DNA from: Escherichia coli
GTDB taxonomy: Bacteria; Pseudomonadota; Gammaproteobacteria; Enterobacterales; Enterobacteriaceae
Length of the DNA: 64,000 nucleotides
NCBI RefSeq assembly: GCF_051903065.1
Contig: NZ_CP178438.1
Direction: 5' to 3' (one strand)
Under the pieces are notes generated by a model. It was not told the DNA's origin. It saw nothing but the letters and a program-made list of their open reading frames with translations, and ran no database searches. Both the position numbers and the translations under genes were made by a program. Below, in pieces: positions 33,005 to 64,000 of this stretch (within the stretch, counting starts at the first letter, position 1; every line of letters begins with the position of its first letter).

Positions 33005-33828
33005 TAGATCACGTGCTCATCCAGTAGCGCCTGGCAGGAAGGCGGCAACGGAGGCGGTGTCTTCTTCTCAGGCTTTGTTGTTCCCGGTTTTGGAGGTTCA
33101 AACCAGCTTTGCAGTTCTGCCCCGCAACCATCGCCTGGTGGCGGTAAAGGTTGATCTTCACACTCCAGACTATCGGCAGGACAACGTAATCGTACATGCA
33201 TATGCGCACGATGCTGGAACCAGGGTCGCACTTTGCGCAACCAGTCGCGATCGGTGCCCGCATCAAGGCAAAGTTGTTGTTTAATCGCCGGATTAACAAA
33301 AATGCGCGTGACGTCTTTGTCCTGGGCGGCGAGTTTGATCAAGCTGAAAATTTCCGGCTTCCACAGCGTGGGGACAACGCGTTTACCGTCGCGGGATACT
33401 AAGTCCAGTGCTTGCGGGCGCAAGAGCTGCGCGGAGGTCCAGCGAGTTTTCGGCAGTTGCAGAAAAATATCGACATCCAGTCCGGTCTGGTGGCTGGCAT
33501 GACCGCCGTTGAAACGCCCACCAGCGGGCATCCCCATATCGCCAATCAGCACCGTACCCATGCCCAGATTGCTCACCTGGCTACTCAGACGCTGGATAAA
33601 CATCACCAGGTCCGGGTGACCGAAATAGCGACGCTGATCGGTACGCATGACCTGATAATGTTCGGACTGTATCGGCAGCGTGTCAGCGCCGACGATACAG
33701 CCATTAGAAAAACTGCCTATCGATTGTGCGCTACCCGGCACAGGTTGGGTTATTTTTTGCCACGGCGTCGCTGCCAGGCTGACGCTACTGGCAAGCAGGG
33801 CCAGTAGCGCAATCGCGGTTTTGTTCAT
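33004..33828 (-). CDS. mepA: penicillin-insensitive murein DD-endopeptidase
   Basis: 274 aa with signal peptide [19 protein letters not shown]. Confidence 0.9.
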
Positions 33829-58616: not shown

Positions 58617-59906
58617 ATGAAAAGAAAAACCATGGGGTGGATTATCGTTTTTCTTCTGTTTATAGTTTACATGCTGAACTATATGGATCGTTCTGCATTA
58701 TCGATTACGGCCCCACTTATCGAAAAAGAGTTAGGCTTTAATGCTGCTGAAATGGGGATGATTTTCAGCGCATTTTTCGTTGGTTATGCTTTATTTAACT
58801 TCATTGGCGGTTGGGCCAGTGACAAAGTTGGACCCAAAACAGTATTTTTGGTTGCTGCACTGTTGTGGTCTGTTTTTTGTGGTATGACCGGTCTGGTCAC
58901 CGGATTATGGACAATGCTTGCCGTACGTGTTTTATTTGGTATGGCAGAGGGCCCGGTTAGTGCAGCAGGAAATAAAATTATTAATAACTGGATCTCGCGT
59001 AAAGAGTCGGCAACAGCTATCGGTATTTTTAGTGCTGGTTCACCACTTGGTGGCGCTATTTCTGGTCCGGTCGTTGGCTTGCTGGCAATATCACTTGGCT
59101 GGCGTCCGGCGTTTGGGATCATATTTATATTTGGCCTAGTTTGGGTATTACTGTGGTACTTCTTTGTCAGTGATAAACCGTCAAAAAGTAAACGTCTGGC
59201 AGCGGAAGAACGTGTCGATTTCGAAAACCATGACGATATTATTCTAGCCGAAGATGGTAAAGGTACACCTTCGCTTGGTTATTACATGAAGCAGCCGATG
59301 GTATGGGCGACCACGCTGGCATTTTTTAGCTATAACTATATTCTATTTTTCTTTCTTACTTGGTTTCCAAGCTATTTGAATCATTCATTACACATTGATA
59401 TTAAAGAAATTAGTATTGCAACTGTTATCCCGTGGTTTATTGGGGCAATTGGCATGGTGTTAGGTGGCGTCTGCTCTGACTTTATTTATCGTATTACGGG
59501 AAATGCCTTACTTTCTCGCCGTTTAATTCTCGGCAGTTGCCTTGCGGGGGCCGCGGTTTGTGTCGCTGTTTCCGGAACTGTTACCTCTATTGGTAGTGCG
59601 ATTACGCTGATGTCTGTTTCCTTATTCCTGCTTTATCTAACTGGACCTATTTATTGGGCTGTTATTCAGGATGTAGTGCATAAAGATAAAGTAGGTAGCG
59701 TAGGCGGTGCGATGCACGGTCTGGCAAATATTTCCGGCATTATTGGTCCATTGGTAACCGGTTTTATTGTCCAGTTCAGTGGTAAATATGATTACGCATT
59801 CTATCTTGCAGGTGCCATAGCAATCATTTCAAGTCTGCTGGTATTCATTTTTGTTAAAAATAAAGGATTGAAATTCAATGAAAGTCAAAGCTGTGTACAT
59901 CAATAA
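58617..59906 (+). CDS. MFS transporter, anion:cation symporter (ACS) type (sugar-acid/hexuronate-like)
   Basis: 429 aa, 12 predicted TM; motif GGWASDKVGPK; absent from this position in K-12. Confidence 0.85.
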   Translation: MKRKTMGWIIVFLLFIVYMLNYMDRSALSITAPLIEKELGFNAAEMGMIFSAFFVGYALFNFIGGWASDKVGPKTVFLVAALLWSVFCGMTGLVTGLWTMLAVRVLFGMAEGPVSAAGNKIINNWISRKESATAIGIFSAGSPLGGAISGPVVGLLAISLGWRPAFGIIFIFGLVWVLLWYFFVSDKPSKSKRLAAEERVDFENHDDIILAEDGKGTPSLGYYMKQPMVWATTLAFFSYNYILFFFLTWFPSYLNHSLHIDIKEISIATVIPWFIGAIGMVLGGVCSDFIYRITGNALLSRRLILGSCLAGAAVCVAVSGTVTSIGSAITLMSVSLFLLYLTGPIYWAVIQDVVHKDKVGSVGGAMHGLANISGIIGPLVTGFIVQFSGKYDYAFYLAGAIAIISSLLVFIFVKNKGLKFNESQSCVHQ

Positions 59907-60903
59907 ACCTGGTGAAATTGCTACCCGTCTGGTCGATTATCCAGTAAGAAAAGATAATGAAGTTTTAATTAAAGTGGATGCAGCGGGAATTTGTGGTTCT
60001 GACATCGGTGCATTTCGTGGTACTAACCCACTGGTAACTTATCCGAGAATTATTGGACATGAAGTCACCGGGATTGTTCTGGAAACCGGTGAGGGGGTAC
60101 CACAAAATATCAAACAGGGCGACCGGGTTATTGTAGATCCCTATGTTTATTGCGGTCACTGTTATCCATGTTCTGTAGGTAGAACTAATTGCTGCGAGAA
60201 CTTAAAAGTCATCGGCGTACATATTGATGGCGCTATGCAAGAAGTGGTTTCGCATCCGGCTCACTTAATTCACAAAATTCCTGACAATGTACCGTCAGAG
60301 ATGGCGCCACTGGCTGAACCCTTAACTATTGCCCTACACGCATTACATCGAGCGCAATTGAAAGCAGGTGAACATGTCGTCATTATTGGTGCAGGCGCTA
60401 TTGGACTTATGGCGGCCCTGAGTTCGTTGAACTATAAAGCAACTCCCATTCTGGTTGATATTGTCGATGAACGGTTGCAATACGCGAAATCGCTCGGCGT
60501 ACCTTATGTAGTAAACTCCGCAAAAGCTAATGTTATTGAGGCAGTGAAAGATATTACACAAGGGACGATGGCTCAGGTTGTGGTGGAAGCCTCTGGTGCA
60601 AATAGCGCAATCAGAAGTACCCTGGATCTGGCCTCATTTGCAGGGCGTATAGCCTATACTGGTTGGCCAAAGCAGGAAACATCGTTACCAACTAATCTAA
60701 TTACCTTTAAAGAACTAGATTTACGTGGTTCCCGTACCAGTGCCGGTGAATTTGAAGAAGCCCTGCAAATGTTATCAACGCTGAATATTAATCCGGCTGA
60801 TATCGTGAGCAAAGTCGTGACAATAGATGAAGTTCCTGAGGCTGTAAAAGAGTTAGATCAATTTCCGGAACGCTATCTGAAAATTAACGTGAAATTCATT
60901 TAA
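59878..60903 (+). CDS. Zn-dependent medium-chain dehydrogenase (L-galactonate 5-dehydrogenase LgoD-like)
   Basis: 341 aa; catalytic Zn GHEVTG, structural Zn CGHCYPCSVGRTNCC, NAD motif GAGAIGL; overlaps the MFS gene by 29 nt. Confidence 0.85.
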   Translation: MKVKAVYINKPGEIATRLVDYPVRKDNEVLIKVDAAGICGSDIGAFRGTNPLVTYPRIIGHEVTGIVLETGEGVPQNIKQGDRVIVDPYVYCGHCYPCSVGRTNCCENLKVIGVHIDGAMQEVVSHPAHLIHKIPDNVPSEMAPLAEPLTIALHALHRAQLKAGEHVVIIGAGAIGLMAALSSLNYKATPILVDIVDERLQYAKSLGVPYVVNSAKANVIEAVKDITQGTMAQVVVEASGANSAIRSTLDLASFAGRIAYTGWPKQETSLPTNLITFKELDLRGSRTSAGEFEEALQMLSTLNINPADIVSKVVTIDEVPEAVKELDQFPERYLKINVKFI

Positions 60904-60930
60904 TTATAATTAACAAAAATAAAAAGTCTG

Positions 60931-60959
60931 ACGCGTAGTGTATTCACTACGCGTTTTTT
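60931..60959 (+). terminator. rho-independent terminator of the MFS-dehydrogenase operon
   Basis: acgcgtagtg-tatt-cactacgcgt stem followed by ttttt. Confidence 0.7.
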
Positions 60960-60961
60960 GT

Positions 60962-61403
60962 GTGCGCCGTGACTGGCGCTGTTCTTCAACTGTGGTGGCT
61001 GAAGAACGACTAAGAGGTGAAAGTTCTCCAAACACCCGGTGAGGGGAAATGTTAGCGGAAGGCAAGGATGTTCATCGCGAGGTGAAATCTGAAGGAAGCC
61101 GGATGCAAAATGCTGGCCTGACGAACAGGAAGCGGCTAAGGCGGCACAAATCACCAAAGCCCAATACTCACACGGAACGCGGTGACGTACAGCCGACAGG
61201 CATAAGCAGGAAAGTCGTGCGAATTACCCCGGGAGATCTGCCGCTCTGCCAGTGTGCTACCGACGCCGTAGTAGCGCTGCAAAACCGGCAGCATGAAGGG
61301 CCGAACATAATTAACCGTGATTAGGACATCCGAACCCGATGATGATTAATGAAGCATAAACGCAGGCAACTGCGGCCAGCGGCAGAAGAGACGGACGGCA
61401 TCC
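60962..61403 (+). other. candidate 5' fragment of a group II intron RNA (domain I region), truncated
   Basis: Begins GTGCGCC immediately after a terminator U-tract; GC-rich non-coding stretch with GNRA-like loops; no domain V or RT ORF; abuts the IS3-family element. Confidence 0.4.
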
Positions 61404-61446
61404 TGAGGTGTACTGGCAATAGCGGACACTACCATTTGTTCTTTTT

Positions 61447-62265
61447 TTAAGCAGCCATCTGATGATATTTTTCCCTGAAGGCTGCCGGGGAGATATTCCC
61501 CAGACGAGAGTGACGACGCTGACGATTGTAGAAAATCTCAATGTATTCCCGTATTACTGAGATGGCCTCATCCCGGCTATTAAAACGATAGTGGCTCAGG
61601 CTCTCATTTTTCAGCGTTCCCCAGAAGCTTTCCATCGGAGCGTTGTCGTAACAGTTACCTTTACGCGACATTGATGTTTTCAGACCAAACTGCTCCTGGA
61701 TGACCCGGTAATCGTATGCGCAGTACTGTGAACCTCGATCGGAGTGGTGGATTAGCCCAGCAGGTGGGCGCTGGCTCCTGAGCGCCATAAACATGGCTTT
61801 ACCTGTCAGCTCTTTTGTCATGCGCTCTCCCATGGCGTAGCCGACAATTTCGCACGTATAAACATCTTTGATGCCAGCGAGGTACAACCATCCCTCCTGT
61901 GTGGCAACATACGTCAGGTCCGCCACCCAGACCTGATTTGGTACTGTAGGAGCGAACGTCTGGTTCAGCAGATTTGGCGCAACTGGCAGATTGTGGCTCG
62001 AGTTCGTAGTCGCTCTGAACTTGCGTTTCTGCTTACAGCGTAGCCTTAGCTCCTTACGAAGACGTGCCAGTCGGTCACGACCAACGATGATGCCATTCTC
62101 TGCCAGCTCCGTCTGGAGCCGCCGGGTTCCATATGTTTCGCGAGTGCTGATATGTGCCACCTTAATCTCCAGTTTTAGCCGCTCATCACTTTGTTTTCTG
62201 TCTGAGGGGTCATGCTGTACCCAGTTGTAATAACCGCTCCTGGATACACCAAATACCTGACACAT
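61447..62265 (-). CDS. IS3-family transposase OrfB (DDE integrase-like domain)
   Basis: 272 aa; ...VWVADLTYV..., [19 protein letters not shown] motifs. Confidence 0.88.
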
Positions 62266-62342
62266 CGCTTCAATGGGAAATTGTTGTCGCCATTGTTCGA
62301 TTAACGCGTATTTTTCAGCGACTCCTGTGCAAAATACGCTGT

Positions 62343-63563
62343 TGTAGATTCAATCTGTCAATGCAACACCCCTTTCAATTATCTCTTTCGGTGTTTTGAA
62401 CTTCAGTGTCTTTCTCGGTCTGTTGTTTAGCTGAGCAGCAACCAGATCTAGTTCATGTTGAGTATATTGGGCAAGACATGTCTTTTTAGGAAAGTACTGC
62501 CGAATTAGCCCATTTGTGTTCTCATTTGTTCCCCGCTGCCAAGGACTCTGAGGATCGCAGAAGTAAACTTTAACGCCGGTGCTGACAGTAAATTCTAGAT
62601 GTCTGGCCAGTTCCATTCCTCTGTCCCATGTCAGTGATTTTCTGAGTTCTGACGGTAAACTCAGGAATTTGTCGGTAAGAGCCTGATTTACTGAGACAGA
62701 ATCTTTGCCCCTGAGTCTAAGGATGATCGTATAACGTGATTTTCGGTCTACAAGTGTGGCTATATGAGAGTTTTTTGTACCTAAGACTAAATCGCCCTCC
62801 CAATGCCCCAGAGAGCGTCTGTTATCGATATTTCGGGAACGTTCGTGAATTGGTGTTCCGTTCACTATGTTAATCGTACCTCTTTCGCCTTTGCGGGTAT
62901 GACGCCTGCCATGGCGAAGGCTATGCGACCGTCGCAGATGCTGTATATTCAGGTGGTGTAGCGCTTCACGGCTACGAAAGTACAGCGTTTTATAAATTGT
63001 CTCAGGTGATATTCGCAGCGTTTTTTGACGTGGTTTTGTTCGCCTTAACCATCCTGATATTTGCTCTGGAGACCATTTCATCTCCAGCTTTTCCAGAACA
63101 AGCTTTCGCAATGGTAAATTTTGATCCAGTAAGCACGGTTTTGGCCTTTTCGCCATTCTGTTGGCTCGGTTATTAGCATCAACAGCTTTGTAATAGCGTC
63201 TGCCCCGATTACGCTGAACTTCACGTGAGATCGTCGAAGGACTGCGATTCAGCGCAGTAGCTATCGCACGAATGCTCATTTTGGCTGACAAACCAGCTCG
63301 TATCTCCTCGCGCTCAGACAGTGTCAGGTGAGCTACAGCCCGCTTACGCTCATGGGGTTTTATGCCGCCAGTATCCCTTAACATAGTGAAGATCGTTCCG
63401 GGTTTTGAACCCAGGATATTCGCTATTTCACTGAAGCCTGTTCCGTTCTTCCATAGTTCAAAAACAGAGGCTTTTTCCTCTGCTGTAAATGTTCGTCTCA
63501 TTCAAAAAACCTCTGCAACCCCATGTTTTCACATAACTGTTGCGTTGACCAATTGAATCTACA
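62343..63563 (-). mobile_element. IS30, 1221 bp
   Basis: Ends TGTAGATTCAATCTGTCAATGCAACACCCC and (reverse complement) TGTAGATTCAATTGGTCAACGCAACAG; 383-aa transposase inside. Confidence 0.92.
62350..63501 (-). CDS. insI: IS30 transposase
   Basis: 383 aa; MRRTFTAEEKASVFELWKNGTGFSEIANILGSKPGTIFTMLRD... Confidence 0.92.
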   Translation of the reverse strand: MRRTFTAEEKASVFELWKNGTGFSEIANILGSKPGTIFTMLRDTGGIKPHERKRAVAHLTLSEREEIRAGLSAKMSIRAIATALNRSPSTISREVQRNRGRRYYKAVDANNRANRMAKRPKPCLLDQNLPLRKLVLEKLEMKWSPEQISGWLRRTKPRQKTLRISPETIYKTLYFRSREALHHLNIQHLRRSHSLRHGRRHTRKGERGTINIVNGTPIHERSRNIDNRRSLGHWEGDLVLGTKNSHIATLVDRKSRYTIILRLRGKDSVSVNQALTDKFLSLPSELRKSLTWDRGMELARHLEFTVSTGVKVYFCDPQSPWQRGTNENTNGLIRQYFPKKTCLAQYTQHELDLVAAQLNNRPRKTLKFKTPKEIIERGVALTD

Positions 63564-63820
63564 ACGGCTTTTTTTAATATGTCCCGTTCGTCGGTAACCC
63601 GCTTCAGCTCTTTCTGGAGACGGCGGATCTCGGCCTGAGCATCTGACTGTTCTTTATTAGTGGAAGAATCCGGACCGTACTTCTTTATCCAGGAGTAAAG
63701 GCTGTGGGTGGTGATATTGAGACGTGTTGCAACGCTGGCAACAGAATAACCGCGATCAACAACCTGTTTGACTGCTTCAATTTTAAACTCTTCGGGATAA
63801 CGCTTACCGCTCATGGGCAC
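63564..63820 (-). CDS. IS3-family OrfA (HTH), 3' end interrupted by IS30
   Basis: MSGKRYPEEFKIEAVKQVVDRGYSVASVATRLNITTHSLYSWIKKYG...ERDILKKA, then the A-run slippery site and the IS30 end. Confidence 0.8.
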
Positions 63821-64000
63821 CTCTCTTTAAGTCATCTTAAATGACTCTGAGGTGTCTATTAAACCTGTGGCGATTCATTCGTCTTGTTTATCAGGTTATT
63901 GATGATATGTTAATTATTGCGGTAGTCGCAGTAGGTAAACGTGAACGTAGCAACGTTTATCATCTCGCCAGTGAGCGGATGAAATAATATCCCTGTCAGC

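Follow-up and report, generated by a model that had tools for sequence, protein, structure and literature searches.

IS30 between halves of two different IS3-family elements in an Escherichia coli chromosome, and the orfA/orfB overlap as a probable IS30 target

We analysed a 64,000-nucleotide (nt) stretch of an Escherichia coli chromosome (assembly GCF_051903065.1, contig NZ_CP178438.1; hereafter the window), in which positions 61404-63877 consist of three insertion sequence (IS) pieces, all on the minus strand, whose outer limits are true IS ends. A complete IS30 lies within the orfA/orfB overlap, that is, the frameshift window, of IS3-family DNA, as initially annotated and as confirmed by intact copies of IS600 and ISEhe3. 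By sequence comparison, however, its flanks are two different IS3-family elements and not one host: the orfA half of an ISEhe3-type element on the side of the left inverted repeat (IRL) of IS30, and the orfB half of IS600 on the side of the right one (IRR). The locus is an ordinary, decayed nest of ISs, and nests of this type are already known from the annotation of E. coli K-12; it is a chimera that was probably shaped by an IS30-mediated deletion, with the overlap acting as an IS30 hot spot.

The initial annotation had placed both flanks in a single IS3-family element, which is contradicted by their identities. The right flank, carrying orfA, is 98.4% identical to positions 1-313 of a complete 1229-bp ISEhe3-type element in L009 (we number the comparison loci with an L) and 99.7% identical to L002, a locus of strain Combat11I9; no meaningful nucleotide similarity of this flank to IS600 was found. 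The left flank corresponds to positions 326-1264 of IS600 and so holds only the 3′ three-quarters of it, with 99.9% identity to the complete 1264-bp IS600 that lies beside IS30 in L002 and 30 of 30 positions matching at the outer end; the Prokaryotic Genome Annotation Pipeline (PGAP) names this sequence “IS3-like element IS600 family transposase”. At the protein level, ISEhe3-type and IS600 OrfA are 35% identical. Of 30 positions, the two outer ends agree at 13, while the paired ends of a real IS600 or ISEhe3 agree at 20-22, and the trinucleotides outside them are GAA and GGA, so that neither halves of one lineage nor matching terminal inverted repeats (TIRs) with a shared 3-bp duplication are present.

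The name ISEhe3 rests on the annotation of K-12, where the same orfA-side fragment is called ISX/insX and lies directly against the truncated IS30B, and on Table 3 of the E. coli W genome paper, which equates insX with ISEhe3 (PMC3032704). Complete 1229-bp copies with paired ends are found on plasmids of Providencia, Pantoea, Klebsiella and E. coli. The intact copies read ATATTAAAAAAAGCCGCGGCGTACTTCGCAAAGCTGTCCGACTGA, i.e., ATATTAAAAAAAGCC-GC-GGCGTACTTCGCAAAGCTGTCCGACTGA, with an OrfA ending in ...ILKKAAAYFAKLSD, and in two of them (L016 and L056) the annotation includes a programmed frameshift. Comparison with the intact references (IS600 in L002; ISEhe3 in L009-L011, L016 and L056) confirmed the outer IS ends of the composite and showed the run of seven A (A7) at the same place in all of them, each with an annotated programmed frameshift or the same orfA/orfB overlap.

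Read on the minus strand, the composite runs ...GACATATTAAAAAAAGCC GT, IS30, AC AGCGTATTTTGC..., with the ISEhe3 part terminating in ...ATATTAAAAAAAGCC-GT and the IS600 part starting with AC-AGCGTATTTTGCACAGGAGTCGCTGAAAAATACGCGTTAA (Table 1). The initial annotation was right about the place of IS30 relative to the A-run, IS30 beginning 5 nt past the latter; the A7 run forms the left half of the IS30 target. Its frame arithmetic is also sound: removal of IS30 and either dinucleotide gives a 96-residue OrfA-like product ending in ...ILKKAVAYFAQESLKNTR or ...ILKKATAYFAQESLKNTR, with orfB in the -1 frame and a restored junction ...ILKKA(V/T)AYFAQESLKNTR, while the frame is lost if both dinucleotides are kept. 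What does not stand is that the product is a canonical OrfA; since the halves belong to different elements, it is a hybrid, and the frame can be restored because IS30 has joined all these elements at one and the same point within a codon. For annotation this means that fragments flanking an IS30 need not belong to one element, and that a restorable frame is no evidence that they do. As had been stated, IS30 separates orfA from orfB and should abolish the OrfAB fusion; judging from the reading frames, an OrfAB transposase cannot come from this locus, and the sole open reading frame (ORF) left from orfA consists of residues 1-83 of ISEhe3 OrfA followed by a 34-residue IS30-encoded tail.

Table 1. 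Features of the IS composite, in window coordinates (IRL and IRR, left and right inverted repeat).
Feature	Position	Strand	Basis
ISEhe3-type left end (K-12 ISX/insX), IS3 family, positions 1-314	63564..63877	-	sequence identity; NCBIfam NF033516 (OrfA)
ISEhe3-type terminal repeat (TGAATCGCCACAGGTTTAATAGACACC...)	63848-63877	-	
ISEhe3-type orfA (MSGKRYPEEFKIEAVKQ...ERDILKKA)	ATG 63814 to ...ILKKA 63566	-	
A7 run (ATATTAAAAAAAGCC) in the ISEhe3-type orfA/orfB overlap; presumed -1 slippery site	63569-63575	-	sequence
Junction dinucleotide GT, ISEhe3 side	63564-63565	-	
Complete IS30	62343-63563	-	1221 bp, inverted repeats, transposase ORF
IS30 IRL	63538-63563		
IS30 transposase ORF, 383 residues	62350-63501	-	
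IS30 IRR	62343-62368		
Deletion joint, CAAC (4 bp, minus strand)	62341-62344	-	base-by-base comparison with L002
Junction dinucleotide AC, IS600 side	62341-62342	-	
IS600 positions 326-1264	61404-62342	-	99.9% identity to the complete IS600 in L002
IS600 OrfA tail (..TAYFAQESLKNTR, then stop)	62301-62342	-	
IS600 orfB ORF, rve-type	61447-62265	-	NF033516, 330 bits
IS600 right terminal repeat	61404-61433	-	

The IS30 copy itself has the features by which the element is recognised: a length of exactly 1221 bp, 26-bp imperfect TIRs starting with TGTAGATTCAAT, and a single long transposase ORF. It is 100% identical to the copy in L002 and 99.6-99.8% identical to those of K-12 and CFT073; its transposase scores 278 bits against NCBIfam NF033563 (cutoff 80), and PGAP labels the identical protein as an IS30 family transposase. 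The copy is intact and potentially active. Only an identical 2-bp target duplication is missing, with GT on one side and AC on the other, which is a matter of the history of this copy and not of the identity of the element.

Both dinucleotides were correctly reported and lie outside IS30 proper, but they are not an aberrant duplication. AC is native to IS600, which reads AAAAAAAGCA-AC-AGCG (GCA-AC-AGCG), and in strain FDAARGOS_536 (L054) an IS30 is found in a complete IS600 at the same spot with an AC duplication. There, the IS600/IRR joint (IS30 and then ACAGCGTATTTTGC) is identical to that of the window, whereas the other side of IS30 is IS600 1-327 with AC, and not ISEhe3-type orfA with GT. 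The native dinucleotide of ISEhe3 is GC, as seen in L006, which reads ...GCCGC before IRL, and in CFT073, where IRL is followed by GCGGCG. GT stems from another joint, an older one, with ISEhe3; the two dinucleotides differ because each joint was made at a different target. A single IS30 insertion into one element, with GT and AC as a complementary duplication, would be compatible with the frame arithmetic and with the fact that the flanks lengthen the inverted repeat of IS30 by 2 bp; it is nevertheless hardly credible, as the flanks come from unrelated elements, a 723-bp longer form of the locus (see below) shows a complete IS600 beside IS30 and not around it, and simple insertions into IS600 and IS911 have normal AC duplications.

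The origin of the T at 63564 is less clear-cut. It is common to the ISEhe3/IRL joint in the window, L001 and L002 and to an ISEhe3/IRR joint on two E. coli plasmids (L012 and L017), and is either native to an unsampled ISEhe3 subtype or a junction-associated change. The plasmid T belongs to an independent joint class. GCCGTGGCG was not found in any plasmid copy, and a 74-nt query with GT gave only full-length matches with one mismatch (762 plasmid records). We considered GT as native to an ISEhe3 subtype and rejected this for the sampled diversity, in which all intact copies read GCCGC. Donor-derived spacer bases of an IS30 circle junction were considered as another origin of GT, but no donor flanked by GT was seen.

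The locus is carried by about 987 complete E. coli genomes, and its forms, tallied in the best 30 of these matches, divide into 26 of the L002 type and 4 of the window type. These 4, all complete genomes, are avian pathogenic E. coli (APEC) E19025 (L001), APEC E18005 and two strains that carry IS903B in addition; the window-type arrangement is colinear in them and is therefore not an assembly artefact. The strains closest to the window, 23CRST027 and 23CRST031 (100% identity), have the extra IS903B (~1066 bp) within the 2.7-kb region.

L002 is 723 bp longer than the window and shows, in order, the ISEhe3 orfA, IS30, 364 bp of an IS911-type orfB, 34 bp of other sequence, and a complete IS600. 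After IS30 it continues with ACCGCGCTCTTGATGTCAGACTCCCTGAACAGTTCTCGATAA..., encoding an IS911-type OrfA tail (ALLMSDSLNSSR), before orfB begins, and its 1264-bp IS600 carries an annotated programmed frameshift and a GGA duplication, the latter visible only around this complete copy. Between 64000 and 62341, and again between 61300 and 62344, every base of the window agrees with L002; what it lacks is exactly the 723 bp that separate the IRR end of IS30 from position 325/327 of IS600. The joint is ambiguous over 4 bp, CAAC, which are common to the IS30 terminus plus AC and to the GCAACAGCG of IS600. By this comparison, the L002 type is shown to be the common and ancestral arrangement, retained in most genomes with the locus, and the window a deletion derivative of it, a direction that follows because the lost 5′ part of IS600 and the IS911-type fragment cannot be regenerated. 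The alleles support an in-situ origin: the IS30 copies of the window and L002 share 50A and 781T, which are absent from five other copies compared, and the IS600 part of the window equals the neighbouring IS600 of L002 except for one private single-nucleotide polymorphism, while IS600::IS30 copies elsewhere differ at 4-11 sites. No second IS30 or IS600 was found on the chromosome of APEC E19025.

IS30 is known to insert at the central 2 bp of near-palindromic hot spots, such as LHS of phage lambda, and to cause deletions at its inverted repeat (IR) edges (the Olasz/Kiss/Szabo model; PMC9333248); hot-spot and IR targeting, dimers and IR-edge deletions are all established for it. Transpositional deletions begin at the IR edge, and targets are attacked with a 2-bp stagger (PMC9333248). 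In the window, the deletion starts exactly at the IR edge and ends on the site that IS30 uses for normal insertion. Most likely, the orfA/orfB overlap of the adjacent IS600 became the target of an IR-IR junction of IS30, a case of intramolecular hot-spot targeting, and the attack would have deleted the 723 bp in situ, from the IR edge to the overlap. Within the overall model, we lean, with modest confidence, towards such an in-situ, IS30-mediated deletion.

The main competitor, which we consider unlikely but well within reach, is homologous recombination or gene conversion, by one exchange in IS30 and one in the IS600 orfB, with an IS600::IS30 donor elsewhere in the cell, without any new transposase-made joint. 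Donors are common: of 5426 complete E. coli genomes, 1088 have the identical IS600/IRR joint, on chromosomes as well as on plasmids, and 1283 have the reciprocal joint. Mismatched IS30 flanks in K-12 IS30D, ATCC 8739 and CFT073 point to frequent exchanges or rearrangements. On the other hand, 781T, which is specific to the locus, is retained in the window, as are the alleles of the local IS600 starting at position 658 or 459, so that the imported tract must fit into ~770 bp around the joint, and the APEC E19025 chromosome offers no donor of its own. Transposase-independent slippage, or illegitimate recombination, between the CAAC tetranucleotides, with the IS30 end involved by coincidence, appears improbable. 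The joint does have a 4-bp overlap, and illegitimate loss of IS30 does occur, with overlaps of 2-4 bp in the IS30-less derivatives L003, L004 and L015; but the joint is base for base that of a true IS600 insertion (L054), and its site ranks 4th of 64,630 positions for IS30 targeting, so that a random CAAC pair giving this exact joint is not to be expected.

Composites of this kind recur in K-12. IS911A::IS30A (insN - insI1 - insO, in the CP4-6 prophage), described as “IS911 ... interrupted by the insertion of IS30A” (PMC9333248), resembles the window in having IS30 in the orfA/orfB overlap at the same offset from the A-run, with the joint AAAAAAGGCT-AC, IS30, AC-CGCGCTC (A6GGCT AC / AC CGCG). 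In contrast to the window, with its ISEhe3-type orfA, IS600 orfB, GT and AC, and 723-bp deletion, both flanks there are IS911 and AC is duplicated. IS30D (KpLE2, near fecE) likewise has sides that derive from different IS3-family elements, with joints at the overlap: an IS600 orfA on the IRL side and an inverted IS911-type orfA on the IRR side. IS30B adjoins the ISX (ISEhe3) orfA at the overlap. The partners and orientation in IS30D and IS30B differ from those of the window, however, and K-12 does not have the combination of ISEhe3 orfA, IS30 and IS600 orfB.

When the joints are compiled, IS911 orfA is joined to IRL in K-12 IS30A and to IRR in CFT073 and K-12 IS30D, and IS911 orfB to IRR in K-12 IS30A and L002 and to IRL in ATCC 8739; ISEhe3 orfA is joined to IRL in the window and L006 and to IRR in K-12 IS30B, L012 and L017, and ISEhe3 orfB to IRL in CFT073; and IS600 orfA is joined to IRL in L054 and K-12 IS30D, and IS600 orfB to IRR in the window, L054 and ATCC 8739. 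All of these joints lie at the same aligned nucleotide. In E. coli, the overlaps of IS911, ISEhe3 and IS600 have thus all been targeted, two of them in both orientations, and, because recombination inside IS30 cannot change which flank is paired with which IS30 end, at least five independent insertions into the three elements are required.

We also scanned IS30 ends in one genome per species, which yielded 34 loci with 38 readable flanks. IS3-family proteins are encoded by 26 of the 38 flanks, and in 24 (63%) homology stops at the C-terminus of OrfA or the start of OrfB. About ten IS3-family lineages, with 26-100% identity to the references, are targeted in Yersinia, Marinomonas, Shewanella, Woeseia, Saccharospirillum, Erwinia and others; the landing nucleotide is the same in IS911, ISEhe3, IS600 and at least seven other lineages, and proper duplications are found where both sides are seen (TC in Yersinia, GC in Marinomonas). 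Two IS30 ends adjoin IS3-family genes outside the overlap, one in the middle of orfB (L029, from a metagenome-assembled genome (MAG) of Spongiibacteraceae) and one in the middle of orfA (L036, from Ca. Erwinia dacicola), and may be deletion endpoints or secondary targets. Exact 26-nt IS30 ends were also seen in marine bacteria, MAGs and a Chryseobacterium assembly (L020-L023, L029, L031-L034, L037, L039 and L047-L051). Some of these may reflect E. coli contamination or IS30 jumps into cloned DNA during library construction; if so, they would have arisen de novo in IS3-family overlaps of foreign DNA.

A single profile describes the 16 non-redundant half-sites, whether on the orfA or the orfB side, with AAA at -12 to -10, A at -7, GC at -5/-4 and GC at -2/-1. 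The target is a quasi-palindrome, AAAnnAnGCnGC, around the central 2 bp. It arises where the conserved residues ..ILKKA-x-A(Y/F)FA.. are encoded, since the codons for Lys-Lys-Ala (AAA AAR GCN) approximate the reverse complement of those for Ala-Tyr/Phe-Phe. Like IS30 hot spots, it is nearly palindromic and receives IS30 at the central 2 bp, with the duplications AC, GC and TC at its centre. A profile built from IS3-family overlaps only ranks the centre of the experimentally defined lambda LHS (33290) 12th of 48,478 positions, and, conversely, a profile built from 12 non-IS3 flanks and LHS places the IS600 overlap 4th, the IS911-type overlap 10th and the ISEhe3 overlap 120th of 64,630 positions. 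LHS was located with the help of plasmid descriptions given in PMC9333248; reading LHS by eye as a palindrome centred on ATAAAAG gave no fit, and the profile scan puts the centre at 33290-33291. The resemblance to IS30 hot spots that the initial annotation had wished to see checked is borne out, and that the overlap window is a natural IS30 hot spot is well supported computationally.

The co-location of IS30 with IS3-family overlaps could alternatively go back to a small number of old composites, perhaps just one, that were inherited and spread, without any target preference. The IS911::IS30 and IS600::IS30 joints are indeed widely shared and could spread with islands and plasmids, and several matches in the survey repeat K-12-type joints. 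We regard this as a poor account of the data all the same, since, for IS911 and for ISEhe3, a given side of the overlap is joined to IRL in some copies and to IRR in others, some ten divergent IS3 lineages in different genera are involved, with proper duplications, and the cross-prediction with non-IS3 sites and lambda LHS works.

Several points weigh against the overall reading. The T of GCCGT does not fit, every intact ISEhe3 examined having GCCGC, so that even the joint on the ISEhe3 side is 1 nt away from a textbook duplication. The part of the transposase in the 723-bp deletion is one that we infer, and either a conversion tract of less than ~770 bp or CAAC slippage would lead to the same sequence. 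The LHS centre may be 1-2 nt off. In the survey, not all loci are independent, as one composite may reach several genomes by inheritance or transfer, and the loci include MAGs and possible contaminants.

The hot spots of the published IS30 model lie in phage and plasmid DNA, whereas here they lie in IS3-family overlaps, as judged from sequence alone. In the literature searched, we found no description of the IS3-family overlap as a class of hot spots, or of chimeric IS30 flanks arising for that reason, although the primary papers on target specificity may hold one. Tentatively, and with slightly less than even confidence, we propose that the overlap is a general, previously undescribed hot spot for IS30, and that IS30 serves as portable homology by which orfA/left-end and orfB/right-end modules are shuffled between IS3-family lineages into chimeric elements. 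It is already part of our main reading that, with all joints at the same codon phase, IS30-IS30 exchange and IS30-mediated deletion pair flanks from different elements; the resulting IS30 copies have dinucleotides that do not match, although the frame seems restorable. Under the tentative proposal, occasional loss of IS30 would then leave chimeric IS3-family elements, e.g., an ISEhe3/IS911 mosaic (L003, L005) and an IS911/ISEhe3 mosaic (L015).

If the overlap is a preferred target, this would explain why IS30 stands beside fragments of IS911, IS600 or ISEhe3 in three of its four K-12 copies and in about one fifth of complete E. coli genomes. The codons of KKA..A(Y/F)F would provide a sequence-level rationale, making IS30 landing sites in new replicons predictable. 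IS30 would then disrupt another family at the very point that separates the regulator (OrfA) from the transposase (OrfAB), so that IS-on-IS insertion would silence IS3-family transposases and leave OrfA-only loci, besides opening a route to chimeric IS3-family elements and chromosomal rearrangements.

Joining the flanks of L002 as if they were one element, termed X, was tried and rejected: the “intact” matches that it gave, L003 and L005, are mosaics of an ISEhe3 orfA and an IS911 orfB fused in frame. As they do not have the IS911-native bases (ACCGC) that L002 keeps, they are IS30-loss derivatives and not the state before insertion. In L003 (1501-2730) and L005, the ISEhe3 orfA and the IS911-type orfB form one frame of 378 residues, which equals L002 minus IS30 and 7 nt. 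The converse, an IS911-type orfA with an ISEhe3 orfB, is seen in L015 (1358-2514), which equals CFT073 minus IS30 and 5 nt; L004 equals L006 minus 585 bp. PGAP annotates L003, L005 and L015 as IS3 family transposases with a programmed frameshift. Three levels of nesting are found at the cobU locus of L006 (1815-2069), where an IS911/ISEc52-type element lies in IS30 (around position 250) and the IS30 itself lies in the ISEhe3 overlap.

The surroundings of the composite are decayed as well. Just beyond the IS600 end, within 60904-61403, a fragment of group II intron domains D1-D4 is found at 61071-61222 on the plus strand (Rfam RF02001, 89 bits, E = 1.6e-18); in L002, the complete IS600 with its GGA duplication sits in this non-IS sequence, and the same non-IS sequence truncates the IS911-type orfB fragment. 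On the other side, the ISEhe3-type left end adjoins a fragment of a RelE-family toxin (window 63878-63990; L001 5581-5688), beyond which lie fragments of an alkaline phosphatase and other pseudogenes, so that the whole neighbourhood is a decayed island. An alcohol dehydrogenase gene or fragment adjoins three IS30/IS3-family composites, those of the window (59878-60903), CFT073 (L013 1-44) and FDAARGOS_536 (L054 1-188), and these three loci may be rearranged versions of one region.

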